Shown here piece by piece: positions 15,032 to 25,072 of a stretch of 25,763 nt of DNA. The stretch comes from a virus (Duplodnaviria > Heunggongvirae > Uroviricota > Caudoviricetes), in the IMG/VR virus record IMGVR_UViG_2609459852_000021. One strand, given 5' to 3'. Below the pieces are notes generated by a model that saw only the letters and a program-made list of their open reading frames with translations, did no database searches and was not told the origin of the DNA. The number at the start of each line of letters is the position of its first letter. Positions within the stretch are counted from its first letter, which is position 1. A program made the position numbers and the translations under genes.

Positions 15032-15775
15032 ATGACACAGACAGAATCAGCGATTCTGGCGCACGCCCGGCGATGTGCGCCAGCGGAGTCGTGCGGCTTC
15101 GTGGTAAGCACGCCGGAGGGGGAAAGATATTTCCCCTGCGTGAATATCTCCGGTGAGCCGGAGGATTATTTCCGGATGGCTCCGGAAGACTGGCTGCAGG
15201 CAGAAATGCAGGGTGAGATTGTGGCGCTGGTCCACAGCCACCCCGGTGGTCTGCCCTGGCTGAGTGAGGCCGACCGGCGGCTGCAGGTGCAGAGTGATTT
15301 GCCGTGGTGGCTGGTCTGCCGGGGGACGATTCATAAGTTCCGCTGTGTGCCGCATCTCACCGGGCGGCGCTTTGAGCACGGGGTGACGGACTGTTACACG
15401 CTGTTCCGGGATGCTTACCATCTGGCGGGGATTGAGATGCCGGATTTTCATCGTGAGGATGACTGGTGGCGTAACGGTCAGAATCTCTATCTGGATAATC
15501 TGGAGGCCACAGGGCTGTATCAGGTGCCGCTGTCAGCGGCGCAGCCGGGCGATGTGCTGCTGTGCTGTTTTGGTTCATCGGTGCCGAATCATGCCGCCAT
15601 TTACTGTGGTGACGGCGAGCTGCTGCACCATATTCCTGAACAACTGAGCAAACGAGAGAGGTATACCGACAAATGGCAGCGACGCACACACTCCCTCTGG
15701 CGTCACCGGGCATGGCACGCATCTGCCTTTACGGGGATTTACAACGATTTGGCCGCCGCATCGACCTTCGTGTGA
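15032..15775 (+). CDS. K: tail tip assembly protein K (JAB/MPN metalloprotease-like plus NlpC/P60-like domains)
   Basis: 247-aa ORF matching lambda gpK; JAMM motif H-S-H-x7-S-x2-D visible in HSHPGGLPWLSEAD; Cys/His candidates for an NlpC/P60 fold downstream. The classic lambda annotation starts at an internal Met about 48 codons in. Confidence 0.9.
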   Translation: MTQTESAILAHARRCAPAESCGFVVSTPEGERYFPCVNISGEPEDYFRMAPEDWLQAEMQGEIVALVHSHPGGLPWLSEADRRLQVQSDLPWWLVCRGTIHKFRCVPHLTGRRFEHGVTDCYTLFRDAYHLAGIEMPDFHREDDWWRNGQNLYLDNLEATGLYQVPLSAAQPGDVLLCCFGSSVPNHAAIYCGDGELLHHIPEQLSKRERYTDKWQRRTHSLWRHRAWHASAFTGIYNDLAAASTFV

Positions 15776-16345
15776 AAACGGGGGCTGAAGCCATCCGGGC
15801 GCTGGCCACACAGCTCCCTTCGTTTCGTCAGAAACTGAGCGACGGCTGGTATCAGGTACGCATTTCCGGGCGTGATGTCAGGCGAAACCGGATTAACGGC
15901 GCAGTTACATGAGGCTCTGCCTGACGGCGCTGTGATTCATATCGTTCCCAGAGTCGCCGGGGCCAAGTCAGGGGGCGTATTCCAGATTGTTCTGGGGGCT
16001 GCCGCCATTGCCGGATCATTCTTTACTGCCGGAGCCACCCTTGCAGCATGGGGGGCAGCCATTGGGGCCGGTGGTATGACCGGCATTCTGTTTTCTCTCG
16101 GTGCCAGTATGGTGCTCGGTGGTGTGGCGCAGATGCTGGCACCGAAAGCCAGAACTCCCCGCACACAGACAACGGATAACGGTAAGCAGAACACCTATTT
16201 CTCCTCACTGGATAACATGGTTGCCCAGGGCAATGTTCTGCCTGTTCTGTACGGTGAAATGCGCGTGGGGTCGCGGGTGGCTTCTCAGGAGATCAGCACG
16301 GCAGACGAAGGGGATGGTGGTCAGGTTGTGGTGATTGGTCGCTGA
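15673..16345 (+). pseudogene. I: tail tip assembly protein I, split by an apparent +1 frameshift (ORFs 15673-15912 and 15872-16345)
   Basis: Two overlapping ORFs in adjacent frames each match one part of lambda gpI (N-terminal ubiquitin-like part MAATHTLPLASPGMARICLYGD...; C-terminal part ...GLTAQLHEALPDGAVIHIVPRVAGAKSGG...); total span is 673 nt against 672 nt expected. Could be a real mutation or a sequencing error. Confidence 0.6.
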
Positions 16346-16405: not shown

Positions 16406-19400
16406 ATGGGTAAAGGCAGCAGTAAGGGGCATACCCCGCGCGAAGCGAAGGACAACCTGAAGTCCACGCAGTTGCTGAGTGTGATCGATGCCATCAGCGA
16501 AGGGCCGGTTGAAGGTCCGGTGGATGGATTAAAAAGCGTGCTGCTGAACAGTACGCCGGTGCTGGACACTGAGGGGAATACCAACATCTCCGGTGTCACG
16601 GTGGTGTTCCGGGCAGGTGAGCAGGAGCAGACACCGCCGGAGGGGTTTGAATCCTCCGGCTCCGAGACGGTGCTGGGTACGGAAGTGAAATATGACACGC
16701 CGATCACCCGCACCATCACGTCGGCAAACATCGACCGTCTGCGCTTTACCTTCGGTGTGCAGGCACTGGTGGAAACCACCTCAAAGGGTGACAGGAATCC
16801 GTCGGAAGTCCGCCTGCTGGTTCAGATACAACGTAACGGTGGCTGGGTGACGGAAAAAGACATCACCATTAAGGGCAAAACCACCTCGCAGTATCTGGCC
16901 TCGGTGGTGGTGGATAACCTGCCGCCGCGCCCGTTTAATATCCGGATGCGCAGGATGACGCCGGACAGCACCACAGACCAGCTGCAGAACAAAACGCTCT
17001 GGTCGTCATACACCGAAATCATCGATGTGAAACAGTGCTACCCGAACACGGCACTGGTCGGCGTGCAGGTGGATTCGGAGCAGTTCGGCAGCCAGCAGGT
17101 GAGCCGTAATTATCATCTGCGCGGGCGCATTCTGCAGGTGCCGTCGAACTATAACCCGCAGACGCGGCAATACAGCGGTATCTGGGACGGAACGTTTAAA
17201 CCGGCATACAGCAACAACATGGCCTGGTGTCTGTGGGATATGCTGACCCACCCGCGCTACGGCATGGGGAAACGTCTTGGTGCGGCGGATGTGGACAAAT
17301 GGGCGCTGTATGTCATCGGCCAGTATTGCGATCAGTCAGTGCCGGATGGCTTTGGTGGCACGGAGCCGCGCATCACCTGTAATGCCTGGCTGACCACACA
17401 GCGTAAGGCGTGGGATGTTCTCAGTGATTTCTGCTCGGCGATGCGCTGTATGCCGGTATGGAACGGGCAGACGCTGACGTTCGTGCAGGACCGGCCGTCG
17501 GATAAGGTGTGGACCTATAACCGCAGTAATGTGGTGATGCCGGATGATGGCGCGCCGTTCCGCTACAGTTTCAGCGCCCTGAAGGACCGCCATAATGCCG
17601 TTGAGGTGAACTGGACTGACCCGGATAACGGCTGGGAAACGGCAACAGAGCTTGTGGAGGACACGCAGGCCATTGCCCGTTATGGTCGTAATGTCACGAA
17701 GATGGATGCCTTTGGCTGTACCAGCCGGGGGCAGGCACACCGCGCCGGGCTGTGGCTGATTAAAACGGAGCTGCTGGAAACGCAGACCGTGGACTTCAGC
17801 GTGGGCGCAGAAGGGCTTCGCCATGTACCGGGCGATGTTATTGAAATCTGTGATGATGACTATGCCGGTATCAGCACCGGTGGTCGTGTGCTGGCGGTGA
17901 GCAGCCAGACCCGGACGCTGACGCTCGACCGTGAAATCACGCTGCCATCCTCTGGCACCACGCTGATAAGCCTGGTTGACGGAAGTGGCAATCCGGTCAG
18001 CGTGCAGGTCCAGTCCGTCACCGACGGCGTGAAGGTGAAAGTGAGCCGGGTTCCTGACGGCGTTGCAGAATACAGCGTGTGGGGGCTGAAGTTGCCGACG
18101 TTGCGCCAGCGCCTGTTCCGCTGTGTGAGTATCCGTGAGAACGACGACGGCACGTATGCCATCACCGCCGTGCAGCATGTACCGGAAAAAGAAGCCATCG
18201 TGGATAACGGGGCGCACTTTGACGGCGACCAGAGTGGCACGGTGAATGGTGTCACGCCGCCAGCGGTGCAGCACCTGGCCGCAGAAGTCACTGCAGACAG
18301 CGGGGAATATCAGGTGCTGGCGCGATGGGACACACCGAAGGTGGTGAAGGGCGTGAGCTTCCTGCTCCGTCTGACCGTAACAGCGGACGACGGCAGTGAG
18401 CTGCTGGTCAGCACGGCCCGGACGACGGAAACCACATACCGCTTCAGGCAACTGGCGCTGGGGCGTTACACGCTGACGGTCCGGGCGGTAAATGCGTGGG
18501 GGCAGCAGGGCGATCCGGCATCGGTATCGTTCCGGATTGCGGCACCGGCAGCGCCTGTCACTATTGAACTGATACCAGGGTATTTTCAGATAACAGCGGT
18601 CCCGAAACTGGCTGTATATGACCCGACGGTGCAGTTTGAGTTCTGGTTCTCGGAAAAGCGGATTATCGATATCAGGCAGGTTGAAACCAGCGCGCGTTAT
18701 CTTGGTACGGCGCTGTACTGGATAGCCGCCAGTAGCAATATTAAGCCGGGTTATGATTATTACTTTTATATCCGCAGCGTGAACACCGTTGGTAAATCGG
18801 CATTTGTGGAGGCCGTTGGTCGGGCGAGCGATGATGCGGAAGGTTATCTGAATTTTTATAAAGGGTTGATCAATAAAACGCATCTCGGCAAGGAACTGCT
18901 GGAAAACTTTGAGCTGACGGAAGATAACGCCAGCAAACTGGAGGAGTTTTCGAAAGAGTGGAAGGACGCCAACGATAAATGGAATGCCATGTGGGGCGTC
19001 AAAATTGAGCAGACCAAAGACGGCAAACATTATGTCGCGGGGCTTGGCCTCAGCATGGAGGATACGGAGGAAGGCAAACTGAGCCAGTTCCTGGTTGCCG
19101 CTAACCGTATCGCGTTTATTGACCCGGCAAACGGGAATGAAACGCCGATGTTTGTGGCGCAGGGCAACCAGATATTCATGAACGACGTGTTCCTGAAGCG
19201 CCTGACGGCCCCCACCATTACCAGCGGCGGTAATCCTCCGGCATTTTCCCTGACACCGGACGGGCGGCTGACGGCGAAAAATGCCGATATCAGCGGTAAC
19301 GTGAATGCGAACTCCGGGACGCTCAACAACGTCACGATTAACGAGAACTGCCGGGTTCTGGGAAAACTGTCCGCGAACCAGATTGAAGGCGATCTCGTTA

Positions 19401-19801
19401 AAACAGTGGGCAAAGCTTTCCCCCGTGACTCCCGGGCACCGGAGCGGTGGCCATCAGGGACCATTACCGTCAGGGTTTATGACGATCAGCCGTTTGACCG
19501 GCAAATTGTTATTCCGGCTGTGGCATTCAGTGGCGCTAAGCATGAGAGAGAGCATACTGATATTTACTCCTCATGCCGTCTGATAGTGCGGAAAAACGGT
19601 GCTGAAATTTATAACCGTACCGCGCTGGATAATACGCTGATTTACAGTGGCGTTATTGATATGCCTGCCGGTCACGGTCACATGACACTGGAGTTTTCGG
19701 TGTCAGCATGGCTGGTAAATGGCTGGTATCCCACAGCAAGTATCAGCGATTTGCTGGTTGTTGTGATGAAGAAAGCCACTGCAGGCATCACGATTAGCTG
19801 A
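16406..19801 (+). CDS. J: central tail fibre / host specificity protein J with non-lambda C-terminal receptor-binding region
   Basis: 1131-aa ORF near-identical to lambda gpJ for roughly the first 980 residues; the last ~150 residues (from about nt 19350) are clearly homologous but strongly diverged. Confidence 0.95.
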
Positions 19802-19820
19802 ATTTTATAACCCAGATACG

Positions 19821-19844
19821 GGCACCAGAAATGGTGCCTTTTTT
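19821..19844 (+). terminator. rho-independent terminator downstream of J
   Basis: GGCACC-AGAAAT-GGTGCC hairpin followed by TTTTTT. Confidence 0.6.
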
Positions 19845-19868
19845 ATTGCAGAAAAGCGAGAGGTAATT

Positions 19869-20468
19869 ATGCGTAAATTATGTGCTGTTATTCTGTCCGC
19901 AGTAGTCTGGCTGGTTGCCGCTGGTACGCCAGCGAGCGCAGCAGAGCATCAGTCCACACTAAGCGCCGGGTATCTTCAGACTCATACTGATATGCCAGGC
20001 AGTGATGACCTGAAGGGCATTAACGTGAAATACCGTTATGAATTTACGGACACGCTGGGGCTGGTGACGTCATTCAGTTATGCCAATGCCAAAGATGAGC
20101 AAAAAACGCATTACAGCGATACCCGCTGGCATGAAGATTCAGTGCGTAACCGCTGGTTCAGCATGATGGCGGGGCCATCTGTACGCGTGAATGAATGGTT
20201 CAGTGCTTATGCGATGGCAGGTGTGGCTTACAGCCGTGTTTCGACGTTCTCCGGGGATTATCTCCGCGTAACTGACAACAAGGGGAAAACGCACGATGTG
20301 CTGACCGGAAGTGATGACGATCGCCACAGCAACACGTCTCTGGCGTGGGGAGCTGGCGTGCAGTTTAACCCGACCGAATCCGTGGCCATTGATATTGCTT
20401 ATGAAGGCTCCGGCAGTGGCGACTGGCGCACTGACGGTTTCATCGTGGGTGTCGGTTATAAGTTCTGA
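19869..20468 (+). CDS. lom: outer membrane protein Lom (Ail/Lom family)
   Basis: 199-aa ORF with a signal peptide (MRKLCAVILSAVVWLVAAGTPASA) and C-terminal ...GFIVGVGYKF, matching lambda Lom; bracketed by terminator hairpins. Confidence 0.9.
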   Translation: MRKLCAVILSAVVWLVAAGTPASAAEHQSTLSAGYLQTHTDMPGSDDLKGINVKYRYEFTDTLGLVTSFSYANAKDEQKTHYSDTRWHEDSVRNRWFSMMAGPSVRVNEWFSAYAMAGVAYSRVSTFSGDYLRVTDNKGKTHDVLTGSDDDRHSNTSLAWGAGVQFNPTESVAIDIAYEGSGSGDWRTDGFIVGVGYKF

Positions 20469-20494
20469 TTAGCCAGGTAACACAGTGTTATGAC

Positions 20495-20521
20495 AGCCCG
20501 CCGGTTCAGGCGGGCTTTTTT
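20495..20521 (+). terminator. rho-independent terminator downstream of lom
   Basis: AGCCCGCC-GGTTCA-GGCGGGCT 8-bp stem followed by TTTTTT. Confidence 0.65.
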
Positions 20522-20532
20522 GTGGAGTGGAT

Positions 20533-22911
20533 ATGGCAGCAGTAAAAATCTCAGGTGTGCTGAAAGATGGTGCGGGAAAACCAATACAGAACTGCACTAT
20601 TCAACTGAAGGCAAAGCGTAACAGCACCACGGTACTGGTGAACACGGTGGCCTCTGAAAATCCGGATGAAGCCGGGCGTTACAGCATGGACGTTGAGTAT
20701 GGTCAGTACAGCGTCATCCTGTGGATTGAGGGTTCTCAGCCATCACATGTTGGGACCATTACCGTCTATGAAGGTTCCAGTCCGGGGACGCTGAATGATT
20801 TTCTCGGTGCCATGACGGAAGATGATGTCATGCCGGAGGCATTGCGCCGTTTTCAGGCAATGGTGGAAGAAGCGGCACGCAACGCCGAAGCCGCCTCTCA
20901 GAGCGCAGCGGCGGCAAAGAAATCCGAAACTGCAGCGGCATCATCGAAGAACGCGGCGAAAACCTCAGAAACGAATGCAGCTAATAGTGCACAGGCGGCA
21001 GCGACCTCAAAGACTGCATCGGCAAACTCCGCGACAGCAGCCAAAAAATCAGAAACCAACGCGAAAAATAGCGAGACAGCCGCAAAGACGAGCGAAACCA
21101 ACGCAAAGTCCAGCCAGACGGCAGCGAAAACCAGCGAAACGAATACCAAAGCCAGTGAAACTGCGGCGAAAAACAGCCAGGATGCAGCGGCCCAAAGCGA
21201 GAGTGCCGCAGCTGGTTCTGCAAGTGCGGCGGCTTCTTCTGCCACTGCATCAGCCAACAGTCAAAAAGCTGCAAAAACCAGCGAAACTAACGCAAAGTCC
21301 AGCCAGACGGCAGCGAAGACCAGCGAAACGAATGCCAAAGCCAGCGAAACTGCGGCGAAAAACAGTCAGGATGCAGCAGCCCAAAGCGAGAGTGCTGCAG
21401 CTGGTTCTGCAAGCGCGGCGGCTGCTTCTGCCACTGCATCAGCCAACAGTCAAAAAGCAGCAAAAACCAGTGAAACCAATGCAAAGACAAGCGAGACTGC
21501 AGCGGCGAACTCGGCGAAAGCATCGGCAGCAAGCCAGACAGCAGCTAAAGCAAGTGAAGACGCAGCCAGAGAGTATGCAAGTCAGGCAGCAGAGCCGTAT
21601 AAATATGTCTTACAGCCACTGCCTGATGTGTGGATACCATTTAACGATTCACTGGATATGATTACGGGCTTTTCGCCATCTTATAAAAAGATTGTTATTG
21701 GTGACGACGAAATAACGATGCCTGGTGACAAGGTGGTTAAGTTTAAACGCGCATCAAAAGCAACTTACATTAATAAATCTGGTGTGCTGACAGAGGCTAC
21801 CATTGACGAGCCACGATTTGAACGTGATGGCCTGCTTATTGAGGGGCAAAGAACGAACTTCTTCCCGAACAGTACAGACCCTTCGAAGTGGAATAAGTCA
21901 ACTTCACTGGACGTTACAGAAACAGGCACAGATAGTTTCGGTTTTAATTATGGCCGGTTTGTCGTACAGGATTCGATTGTTGGTACAAGTAAAGCGCATA
22001 CCATTATCGGACTGTATTCGAGTACCGGAGGGGTTGATACTTCAGGGGACGAAAAGTATGTAACTATATCCTGTCGGGTAAAAAGTGAAGTTGATAATAT
22101 CGACGTTCGTATTTTATTTGAACATTATGATGGGGAGGTAAGGACATCAATAGGAACAGCAAGCCTGAACCTTACCACCCGCATAATTAGCAAGACAGGT
22201 CAGACAAGCCGTGTTACAGCAAGGTCTGTTAAGGATGATGCAACTGGCTGGATATTTTTTGAGGCTACATTAAAAGCAGATACAACAGAAAATACGGTTG
22301 GTGGTTTCGTCCAGTATTCTCCGGATACAGGTCAGATGGTGGCATCAGGGGATTGTCTCGATGTAACCACTCCCCAGATTGAGGCTGGTACAGGCGCATC
22401 ATCTTTTATTGTTACGGGGGCTGCACCGGTAACGCGGGCAAGCGATATAGTTACAGTCCCAATTAAGAATAATCTTTATAATCTACCTTTTACGGTTCTT
22501 TGTGAGGTACATAAGAACTGGTATAAAACGCCAAATGCAGCACCGCGTGTTTTTGATACCGGCGGTCATCAAACCGGAGCGGCTATTATTCTTGGCTTCG
22601 GTTCTTCAGCAGATTACGACGGATTTCCTTATTGCGATATTGGTGGGGCTAACAGGCGGATAAACGAAAATGCATCGCTTGAAAAAATGGTTATGGGGAT
22701 GCGTGTAAAGTCAGATCAGTCTACATGCGCAGTAAGTAACGGGCGTATATCCAGCGAAACAAAAACCACATGGTCCTGTATTCAGAACTCCGCAATTATC
22801 CGTATTGGAGGCCAGACTACAGCCGGTTTACGCCATTTATTTGGTCATGTCAGGAATTTCAGAATATGGCACAAGGCATTGACTGATGCTCAGGTGGGGG
22901 AGTTAATCTAA
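20533..22911 (+). CDS. stf: side tail fibre protein (lambda Stf-like N-terminus, Ala/Ser/Thr-rich repeat shaft, non-lambda C-terminal receptor-binding region)
   Basis: N-terminus MAAVKISGVLKDGAGKPIQNCTIQLKA... matches lambda Stf; shaft built of SETNAK/TAAKTSE-type repeats; the C-terminal ~430 aa lacks the His-rich lambda tip and ends ...FRIWHKALTDAQVGELI (possibly a LamG/ConA-like jelly roll). Start at ATG 20533; an in-frame GTG lies at 20527. Confidence 0.88.
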   Translation: MAAVKISGVLKDGAGKPIQNCTIQLKAKRNSTTVLVNTVASENPDEAGRYSMDVEYGQYSVILWIEGSQPSHVGTITVYEGSSPGTLNDFLGAMTEDDVMPEALRRFQAMVEEAARNAEAASQSAAAAKKSETAAASSKNAAKTSETNAANSAQAAATSKTASANSATAAKKSETNAKNSETAAKTSETNAKSSQTAAKTSETNTKASETAAKNSQDAAAQSESAAAGSASAAASSATASANSQKAAKTSETNAKSSQTAAKTSETNAKASETAAKNSQDAAAQSESAAAGSASAAAASATASANSQKAAKTSETNAKTSETAAANSAKASAASQTAAKASEDAAREYASQAAEPYKYVLQPLPDVWIPFNDSLDMITGFSPSYKKIVIGDDEITMPGDKVVKFKRASKATYINKSGVLTEATIDEPRFERDGLLIEGQRTNFFPNSTDPSKWNKSTSLDVTETGTDSFGFNYGRFVVQDSIVGTSKAHTIIGLYSSTGGVDTSGDEKYVTISCRVKSEVDNIDVRILFEHYDGEVRTSIGTASLNLTTRIISKTGQTSRVTARSVKDDATGWIFFEATLKADTTENTVGGFVQYSPDTGQMVASGDCLDVTTPQIEAGTGASSFIVTGAAPVTRASDIVTVPIKNNLYNLPFTVLCEVHKNWYKTPNAAPRVFDTGGHQTGAAIILGFGSSADYDGFPYCDIGGANRRINENASLEKMVMGMRVKSDQSTCAVSNGRISSETKTTWSCIQNSAIIRIGGQTTAGLRHLFGHVRNFRIWHKALTDAQVGELI
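21085..21462 (+). repeat. perfect-frame tandem duplication, 2 x 189 bp (63 aa), inside stf; partial third unit to about 21490
   Basis: Units starting at 21085 and 21274 are near-identical at nucleotide level and encode KTSETNAKSSQTAAKTSETN(T/A)KASETAAKNSQDAAAQSESAAAGSASAAA(S/A)SATASANSQKAA twice. Confidence 0.85.
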
Positions 22912-23192
22912 TGAAAGATTTAACACTCAAATTTGTCGACAGGGCCGACTTTTCGGCCTTTATGGAGAGCATTGGCTATTATGATGACGAGTCGATGCAG
23001 GATGATATTCTTATTGACGTGATAGGTAATGTGTACAAAGAAACCGGAGAACTTACTGAAGATGGCGAGCCGGTATGTGTTAAGGAGGACGGATATTTTG
23101 TAAGCGTGCGCATCATTAATGATGCAAAAAAATCGTCAATATTCGATAAATACGCGATTGTTGTTGAGCATCAACTTCGTGGCTGGATGTGA
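22911..23192 (+). CDS. hypothetical acidic protein, 93 aa (possible tail-fibre chaperone or accessory protein)
   Basis: ATG overlaps the stf stop by 1 nt (TAATG); about 20 Asp/Glu against 10 Lys/Arg; no family recognised. Confidence 0.55.
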   Translation: MKDLTLKFVDRADFSAFMESIGYYDDESMQDDILIDVIGNVYKETGELTEDGEPVCVKEDGYFVSVRIINDAKKSSIFDKYAIVVEHQLRGWM

Positions 23193-23201
23193 GGGAGACA
23201 A

Positions 23202-23906
23202 ATGGCTACATCGACAGTAATTCCTGATGACATCAAAACGCTAAAGGGAGATGTCAGTAAAGCCAAGGAAGATATTTCCTCAATTAACGGAAAAGTATCA
23301 ACGCTTCAGACTGATATGACCAGTGCAAAGCAGGATATCAGCTCCAGATACACAAAAACTGAAGTTGATAATAAGCTGAAAAACAAACTGGAAGTGAACG
23401 CTCTGGAAAGCGGTCGTTATGGTGGAGATTTTTACCCGCTGACTGGCCGTGAAGCGTTTTATTTGTGGGGATTGGGCACGACTACAGCGGCGGCAAACCT
23501 TTATCTTAATCCTGACTCCGCAATTTCGTCTGTACTGCGGTCAACATCGTCTATCCGCTATAAAGATTCAGTAGAGACAATAGATTCAGAGCACGCCGAT
23601 CTCATTTTCAGGATGCGCCCTGTGTGGTACAGGTCGCAATGCGAAAATGACAGGCGTGACTGGGGATTCTACGGATTGATTGCCGAGGAAGTAGGAGAAA
23701 TTGCCCCTCAGTTTGTACACTGGCGACCAGCTAACGAGAATGATGCTCCTGAAGCTATTTCCAGCAATGGCCTTGTTGCCGAAGGTGTAATGTACGAACG
23801 TCTGGTTGTTCCACTGATTCACCATATCCAGAAACTGACTGAAAGAGTTGATGAACTTGAGTCAGAATTAAAGCTGTTATCAACTTCCCGAAGCGATATC
23901 GGATAA
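23202..23906 (+). CDS. small tail-fibre-like protein with C-terminal intramolecular chaperone (peptidase S74-like) domain
   Basis: RBS GAGGGAG; N-terminal heptad/coiled-coil segment (DIKTLKGDVSKAKEDISSINGKVSTLQTDMTSAKQDISS); C-terminal half carries S-x-x-R-x-K (SSIRYK), RPVWYR, GFYGLIAEEVGEIAPQFV, GVMYERLVVPLIHHIQKL and a terminal coiled coil, which I recall as the endosialidase/T5 pb1 chaperone-domain signature. Confidence 0.6.
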   Translation: MATSTVIPDDIKTLKGDVSKAKEDISSINGKVSTLQTDMTSAKQDISSRYTKTEVDNKLKNKLEVNALESGRYGGDFYPLTGREAFYLWGLGTTTAAANLYLNPDSAISSVLRSTSSIRYKDSVETIDSEHADLIFRMRPVWYRSQCENDRRDWGFYGLIAEEVGEIAPQFVHWRPANENDAPEAISSNGLVAEGVMYERLVVPLIHHIQKLTERVDELESELKLLSTSRSDIG

Positions 23907-23916
23907 AGGAGGAGTA

Positions 23917-24210
23917 ATGGATATAAGCCCCTTACTTCATGCACTTTGTGCTGTGGCTGCGCAGACACTGGTTGGTCTTTTTACCGGAAACTGGGCTTAC
24001 GGAGCGATAGCCGGTTGTGCGTTCTTCATTGCGCGTGAACACACCCAGGCAGAATATCGCTGGATTGAAATGTTCGGGCATGGCAAGCGAATGAATATGC
24101 CGTGGTGGGGCGGTTTTGATCCGCGCGCGTGGGATGTGGCAAGCCTGATGGATTTTGCTGTGCCGGTGGTGGCGTGTCTGCTGGTCTGGCTGTTGGTTAA
24201 TCGTGGGTGA
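23917..24210 (+). CDS. small membrane protein, 97 aa, about 3 predicted TM helices
   Basis: Strong RBS AGGAGG; hydrophobic segments PLLHALCAVAAQTLVGLFTG, AYGAIAGCAFFIA and FAVPVVACLLVWLLV; no family recognised. Confidence 0.5.
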   Translation: MDISPLLHALCAVAAQTLVGLFTGNWAYGAIAGCAFFIAREHTQAEYRWIEMFGHGKRMNMPWWGGFDPRAWDVASLMDFAVPVVACLLVWLLVNRG

Positions 24211-24403: not shown

Positions 24404-25072
24404 CTATTTTTTCCCTGAAGCGGAAAACATTACTACAGTACCTTGAACCTTGGTTTTAACATTCTCGAAATGCTCTGAGAGTATATGTGTTAAGCCTTCT
24501 TCGGAATCTTTTGTGTTTGAAAAGATGCCTTTCTGATTGTAAATGCGCATCAGTTTTTGACCGAAGCTATTGTGCACAACTCCATCGCCAAGAATTGTGG
24601 CTCCGTATAGAGTTCCATCGTCAGTTAAGGCCTGCGCCGCATTGCGTATTACACAGCTTTTTGTAGATATATTTCCAGGCAGGCAGTGAAGAAGGTAAAA
24701 CATGGAAATGGAATCAAATTGACCATGTAACGTCGCGGGATAAGGTTCAAAAACATCATGGCTAATTTTATGTTTAATTTTTGATTCCCCAGCCCTTGTA
24801 GATGCCGCGTTCAGGCTAGCTTCGTTCAAATCCATTAAAGATATCAGACTACTCTCAGGTACGTGAGTAAGGTAAAACCCAGTTCCAACACCAATATCCA
24901 GATGGTTGTTACCTAAATGTTCCAGAAAGTGTGGAAGAAGGTGTTCCTTTGTAGGACATCCCCATGCAAGCCGATTTGATACTCCCAAAACCCACCAGTC
25001 ATAAAGCTTTAGGGTAAGTGGTGTGTAAATTTTAGCCCCATCATCTGTGTTTTTTTTCATTAATTTCACCAT
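24404..25072 (-). CDS. class I SAM-dependent methyltransferase, substrate unknown (probable start at 25060, MKKNTDD...)
   Basis: Minus-strand ORF with Rossmann motif I LDIGVGTGFY, an acidic post-I strand (SLMDLNEAS) and FDSISMFYLLHCLP; no DPPY/NPPY or Pro-Cys motif, so it is unlikely to be a DNA methyltransferase; AT-rich. Confidence 0.75.
   Translation of the reverse strand: MVKLMKKNTDDGAKIYTPLTLKLYDWWVLGVSNRLAWGCPTKEHLLPHFLEHLGNNHLDIGVGTGFYLTHVPESSLISLMDLNEASLNAASTRAGESKIKHKISHDVFEPYPATLHGQFDSISMFYLLHCLPGNISTKSCVIRNAAQALTDDGTLYGATILGDGVVHNSFGQKLMRIYNQKGIFSNTKDSEEGLTHILSEHFENVKTKVQGTVVMFSASGKK

Follow-up and report, generated by a model that had tools for sequence, protein, structure and literature searches.

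A lambda-type J protein with a common, probably OmpC-binding tip in a lambda-like prophage of Escherichia coli

Which receptor is recognized by a tail tip protein that has the body, but not the tip, of phage lambda J? The question is raised by gene J (tail tip attachment or host specificity protein; 16406–19801, plus strand, as are all features below unless stated otherwise) in a 25,763-nucleotide (nt) stretch of viral DNA (Caudoviricetes; IMG/VR record IMGVR_UViG_2609459852_000021). This stretch, hereafter the window, spans the late region, with the head and tail genes, of a lambda-like Escherichia coli prophage. A preliminary description held that J matches lambda up to about residue 980 and then becomes a homologous but strongly diverged C-terminal domain, that the phage probably uses a different receptor or a different LamB variant, and that a recombination junction lies near position 19350. 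Here, we propose that the tip of this J probably binds the trimeric porin OmpC and not LamB, show that it belongs to an allele class already known from Shiga toxin and other lambda-like phages, and place its probable gain by recombination at a point upstream of 19350.

J is an intact open reading frame (ORF) of 1131 amino acids, in which six Pfam domains follow each other in the lambda order (Phage-tail_3, FNIII-A_GpJ, Ig_J, Ig_J_second, Phage_Tail_Tip and Ig_GpJ_C); the order of the ORFs around it also agrees with the lambda annotation (...H-M-L-K-I-J-lom-stf), with the frame of gene I interrupted. Bases 1–2933 of J are 94.6% identical to lambda, and a megablast alignment to lambda (J02459) ends at base 2933 (19338 in the window), that to phage 434 at base 2945 (19350). 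In consecutive segments of 100 nt, the identity to lambda is 0.80–1.00 up to 19305, 0.62 at 19306–19405, and 0.50–0.60 from there to the end of J; a fall in nt identity from roughly 95% to roughly 55% within a single gene is far beyond chance. At the protein level, 939 of 982 residues (95.6%) are shared with lambda over residues 1–982, as against 61 of 150 (40.7%) over residues 983–1131, so that the domain stays far from lambda J once the two are properly aligned. The LamB-type tip allele of lambda is thereby excluded (41% protein and about 55% nt identity to lambda residues 983–1132). The tail of J is homologous to that of lambda all the same, because residues 1001–1131 match PF12421 (Ig_GpJ_C, the C-terminal receptor-binding domain of J; E 6.7e-37, 127 bits against a cutoff of 26.2) and because a 198-residue query aligns over its full length with the solved J structures 8xcj (E 5.5e-60) and 8iyk (E 2.9e-59) and, best of all, with 9wca (E 9.4e-81). 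The division of J first described thus stands, and the peptide that was quoted for its diverged part is present exactly in the protein.

The diverged tip has close relatives. The last 502 nt of J are 99.6% identical to phage Lambda_2G7b (LR595866; Mathieu et al., 2020) and 97.2% identical to VT1-Sakai, to PPompW prophages and to many Stx1a and Stx2a phages. For the tip protein (residues 983–1131) the identity is 100% to 2G7b, 99% to VT1-Sakai, 63% to phage 21 (phi21; OL657228), 58% to A8 and 2H10, 41% to lambda and 39% to 434. When a longer query of 167 residues (965–1131 of the window J) was compared with sequenced phages, 56 records fell into the class of this tip, at 94% identity or more, with the phage 21 class at 66%, the BP-4795/1717/2H10 class at 62%, the lambda class at 45.5% and the 434/mEp460 class at 44–46%. 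Mathieu et al. (2020) described four J clusters in their lambda isolates, and the J of Lambda_2G7b is known to share more than 97% of its N-terminal 982 residues, and 40–60% of the last 150 or so, with lambda (Andrews and Fields). Lambda_2G7b agrees with the window not only in the tip but also in lom and the block downstream of it (98–100%), and differs in having another J haplotype upstream of 19210. The VT1-Sakai J (AP000400, 530–4002) is annotated as two truncated coding sequences, split by a mutation, and the copy in O157 Sakai is thus defective.

A further relative comes from an engineering study in which natural prophage J tips were fused to lambda J at residue 964; two of the resulting chimeras, A8 and 1A2, use OmpC (Brödel et al., Nature 2024; PMC11338833). 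We took the DNA of both from the supplement of that paper and aligned it to the window with a method that tolerates frameshifts. Over the last 190 residues, 176 of the 182 readable residues of gpJ 1A2 are identical to the window, as compared to 123 of 180 for A8, and the clear differences from 1A2 are only two, R1048K and G1106N (window to 1A2). Because both are exactly the states found in VT1-Sakai, gpJ 1A2 is, as judged by this alignment, an allele of the VT1-Sakai type. Like the window J, gpJ 1A2 has a lambda-type body joined to the tip within the same conserved linker, but its junction was engineered at residue 964, whereas the natural one lies at codons 936–942 (see below).

The receptor of 1A2 was established by experiment. 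It was assayed in MG1655 cells lacking lamB and ompC and supplied with ompC variants on plasmids; at the highest multiplicity of infection (MOI), delivery reached 76–99% with 20 of 23 OmpC variants and 0.9–2% with the variants G1, G2 and G40, the G1 figures being those of the OmpC-MG1655 panel, and delivery into wild-type MG1655, which makes LamB, was 5% at an MOI of 50 (PMC11338833 and its source data). gpJ-1A2 has since been used against O157 (10.1101/2025.02.28.640725). In the deposited Source Data for Extended Data Fig. 2 of PMC11338833, panel C (OmpC-EDL933) repeats the numbers of panel B (OmpC-MG1655) for both 1A2 and A8, which is at odds with the main text of that paper and seems to be a copying mistake in the file; panel C was left unused here, and OmpC dependence was taken from the main text and Extended Data Fig. 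1. The A8 gpJ uses OmpC as well, including that of K-12 (PMC11338833). Its structure from residue 713 onwards is represented by PDB entries 9wca and 9wcb, and since the latter includes three chains of OmpC in addition, the family to which the window tip belongs has a member that was solved together with an OmpC trimer. A8, whose tip is identical to that of phage Lambda_2H10, is of the same domain family as the window tip and provides its best structural match, 9wca (E 9e-81 in rounded form); it differs by the 58% identity over residues 983–1131, by indels at the 1012 and 1048 hotspots (see below) and by another spectrum of OmpC variants.

Family resemblance of this order is a poor guide to the receptor. 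Phage 21 has a tip of the same family as the window, with the same linker haplotype, on a divergent J body; its native receptor is LamB, and use of OmpC or OmpF arises by mutation, a single one being enough for OmpC. Native use of OmpC by phage 21 is thus ruled out by the papers. Because the phage 21 tip is 81% identical to that of A8 and yet uses LamB, a tip similarity of about 60–80% cannot predict the receptor in the lambda J family. The case for the window rests instead on its distance of two residues from 1A2: near-identity to a J of known OmpC dependence, set against 41% identity to the LamB-dependent tip of lambda, makes it likely that the window tip uses OmpC in general. The different receptor first suspected from the divergence is thus well founded, and alignment to J proteins of phages with known receptors, which had been proposed as a check, points to OmpC.

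Where the tip was joined to the lambda-type body can be read from informative sites. Up to 19210, the window agrees with lambda, 434 and 2H10 and not with 2G7b, VT1-Sakai or phi21. Position 19210 is the final site at which it sides with lambda and not with 2G7b and VT1-Sakai, 19231 the earliest at which the reverse holds, and from 19231 on the window equals 2G7b at every variable site. The change from the lambda-type to the 2G7b/VT1-Sakai-type haplotype therefore falls within 19211–19230, codons 936–942 (...ITSGGNP...). Upstream of this interval lies the lambda-type body, with the hub domains, FNIII, helical shaft and beta-prism fibre (residues 1–935; 16406–19210). Downstream, the linker that is conserved in protein sequence (residues 942–982; 19231–19351) is already part of the foreign module: within it the sole difference from VT1-Sakai is at 19351, as against more than 20, mostly synonymous, differences from lambda. 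This stretch of identity is also where the engineers placed their fusion point, lambda residue 964 (PMC11338833). The hypervariable receptor-binding domain, of the 2G7b/VT1-Sakai/gpJ-1A2 allele, follows (residues 983–1131; 19352–19798), with Ig_GpJ_C at 19406–19798 inside it. Synonymous divergence (dS) from lambda is 0.11 for residues 1–500, 0.22 for residues 501–935, 0.73 for residues 936–982 (nonsynonymous divergence, dN, of 0.054) and 2.6, that is, saturated, for residues 983–1131. Thus, of the junction proposed near 19350, the recombination is borne out, by the jump in dS and by the presence of the same tip on the VT1-Sakai backbone, but the position is not, since the informative sites place it about 130 nt further upstream. 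Position 19350 is best read as the start of protein-level divergence inside a segment that is already foreign, at the point where amino-acid constraint ends.

The other side of the exchange lies beyond J. The identity of the window to lambda is 0.32–0.74 from 19802 to about 20374 and returns to 0.86–0.92 at 20375–20524, whereas 2G7b remains 0.98–1.00 identical across the J–lom spacer, lom and the sequence downstream (19802–20524). Relative to lambda, the swapped block thus measures about 1.15 kb, takes in lom and has its right edge at about 20375, an extension that the preliminary description had missed. On the left, the J genes of VT1-Sakai and 2G7b part from the window: that of VT1-Sakai is about 60% identical just upstream of the tip module and 97% or more from 19202 onwards, and that of 2G7b has differing haplotypes upstream of 19210 (for example, 0.83 identity at 19172–19201). 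The occurrence of this tip on the VT1-Sakai backbone, which is divergent, shows that it passes as a cassette from one J backbone to another. A lambda-type J would have gained it by homologous recombination in the conserved linker, with the crossover at 19211–19230 and the import running through lom to about 20375.

The alternative that the tip diverged in place from a lambda-like one, by fast positive selection and with no recombination, draws on the diversifying selection that tail-fibre tips are known to be under (PMC6646904). However, saturated dS in the tip and raised dS in the conserved linker, next to the low values upstream, and a dN/dS of 0.23 in the tip relative to lambda are not the pattern that it requires, and an identical tip is found on unrelated backbones, with DNA that is 100% identical in many genomes. 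Taken with the informative sites, this pattern leads us to reject positive selection in place as the cause of the divergence; we regard it as hardly credible. A second alternative, raised in the preliminary description, is that the tip is still on LamB or a LamB variant, like those of lambda and phage 21, and that its fine specificity alone differs. The phage 21 tip, natively LamB-using, is indeed nearer to that of the window than is the tip of lambda (63% as against 41%). Yet the near-identical 1A2 delivers to only one in twenty or so of wild-type cells that make LamB, and it works in the lamB ompC double deletion when given a suitable ompC. We therefore consider continued use of LamB very improbable.

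Binding to OmpC remains the reading that we prefer, and what weighs against it concerns mainly the step from 1A2 to the window. OmpC dependence was shown for 1A2, two residues away, and not for this exact protein; the 1A2 sequence was machine-read from a PDF and carries frameshift errors, with 8 of the 190 positions unreadable; single or few substitutions can switch porin use in this family, as in phi21; and the two residues are badly placed. In a study of 1207 natural J homologues, Maddamsetti et al. (PMC6646904) delimited a specificity region at residues 960–1132 with four hotspots of variability and indels (1012, 1048–1049, 1077–1078 and 1107), hypothesized to be surface loops, and found lambda residue 1107 to be one of two always required for the gain of OmpF by LamB-using phage. 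Our tip alignment has its indels and peak variability at the same four lambda positions, and both R1048 (codon 19547–19549; K in VT1-Sakai and 1A2) and G1106 (codon 19721–19723; N in VT1-Sakai and 1A2, aligned with D1107 of lambda) are within them. Moreover, 2G7b, whose tip is identical, had MG1655 or E. coli C as its isolation host (Mathieu et al.), yet 1A2 does not use K-12 OmpC, which hints at a somewhat different spectrum of variants, or at isolation on strain C. Finally, gene I looks frameshifted (see below), so that the prophage may build no tails.

Several of these points favour a third alternative, namely that R1048 and G1106 shift the specificity away from that of 1A2, to another subset of OmpC variants (e.g. 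those of K-12 or C) or to a different general porin, for instance OmpF: both residues are in hotspots, position 1107 is critical for the OmpF switch, phi21 acquires OmpC by one mutation, and 2G7b came from plaques on either MG1655 hsdR or E. coli C. Against it, the R/K exchange is conservative, there is no sign of a non-porin receptor, and phage PhiR55_1, whose tip DNA is 97% identical (an assignment that leaves aside its residues 1048 and 1106), is recorded on E. coli C, possibly the isolation host of 2G7b too. The supplement of Mathieu et al. is silent on the indicator strain of 2G7b; the SNIPE preprint names PhiR47.1 and PhiR55.1 and gives no receptor for them, and a 2026 receptor-prediction preprint deals with GpJ of the Drexlerviridae type, the C-terminal domain of lambda GpJ being outside its alignment. 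We hold such a shift, as an alternative to the 1A2 type of OmpC use, to be unlikely. The related idea that the window/2G7b variant is functionally unlike 1A2/VT1-Sakai, the two residues being a natural switch that widens or shifts the OmpC range, e.g. to the K-12 or C type, is unlikely as well, if somewhat less so.

If the tip does bind OmpC, entry may proceed much as in lambda. The 58% and 41% identity to solved tips suggests that this one, too, is a trimer of Ig-like fold that contacts its receptor through four loops. As judged from the homologous lambda J–LamB structures (PMC11101478), four loops at the bottom of the trimer would enter the outer vestibule of the porin trimer; the base of the tip would then spread, and a twist would be relayed upward through the beta-prism and the helical shaft to the FNIII and hub domains, which would open; the gpI plug would loosen, the tube open and the DNA leave. 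The parts of J that would relay the signal lie upstream of the tip, and because they share the 95.6% identity of the rest of J to lambda, the opening machinery should be the same. Compared with lambda J (PDB 8xcj, 8xck and 8iyk), then, the C-terminal domain is Ig-like and homologous, and the differences are the diverged tip and the receptor, LamB in lambda and probably OmpC here.

The allele is far from rare. Of 5426 complete E. coli genomes, 3372 (62%) contain DNA with 80% or higher identity to the tip; about 1890 records match at 95% or more, and many are 100% identical. The LamB-type tip of lambda itself was found in 98 of the 5426 genomes (<2%), always with an identity of at least 99%; all five that are listed belong to laboratory or DE3-type strains. 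Since the counts are 3372 and 98, the allele that was called non-lambda is the ordinary one and that of lambda is rare, a contrast that had also gone unnoticed in the preliminary description.

Bases 1–25000 of the window are a 99.0% match to a prophage of E. coli O166:H15 JNE21-003, in which an integrase gene and dusA lie just past the region equivalent to the end of the window. Between J and lom, a consensus scan picks out a terminator-like hairpin and T-run (19820–19849; 8 pairs, 5 of them G-C, a 4-nt loop, then TTTTTATT), a pattern match only; the annotations of phages 21 and 434 also put a terminator in this position behind J. The lom gene (19869–20468), within the non-lambda block, encodes an Ail/Lom outer-membrane protein of 199 amino acids (Pfam Ail_Lom, E 1.7e-127), and the lambda allele of lom is the divergent one with respect to 434, 2H10 and VT1-Sakai.

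Upstream of J, the tail assembly gene I (15673–16345) has a lambda-like N-terminus from the ATG at 15673, a stop near 15910, and its remainder in the +1 frame up to 16345. The lesion, at about 15878–15892, consists of a 1-nt insertion with clustered substitutions, GTCAGGCGAAACCGG as against GTCA-GCACGTCCGG in lambda, 2G7b and the closest genome. Because the 81-nt patch around it has no match at 95% identity or more in the 5426 complete E. coli genomes, it appears to be either a sequencing error or a private mutation, in which case the prophage could probably not assemble tails. Downstream of lom, the side tail fibre locus (20527–24210) is unlike that of lambda: it comprises a 794-residue Stf with a prophage tail-fibre N-terminal domain, followed by ORFs of 93, 234 and 97 residues, that of 234 residues carrying a Peptidase_S74 intramolecular-chaperone domain, an arrangement annotated likewise in 2G7b and JNE21-003. 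A gene for a class I S-adenosylmethionine-dependent methyltransferase (24404–25072, minus strand) lies among remnants of tail-fibre-assembly genes; shared with 2G7b and JNE21-003, it is probably a moron.

In sum, the tip allele of this J is already known, has been characterized experimentally as a class and is extremely common, and the preliminary description was right save for the position of the junction. What is known of receptor recognition by phages is left unchanged by this tip, whose allele already serves in delivery particles engineered to target O157. Knowing exactly where the crossover lies, and that the swapped block takes in both the tip and lom, adds a little to the understanding of how such cassettes move. 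For annotation, the central tail fibre of this prophage should be described as having a tip of the OmpC type, as is probable, and not of the LamB type. For the family, it is laboratory lambda, with a tip found in fewer than 2% of complete E. coli genomes, that is the odd one out among the J tips of E. coli.

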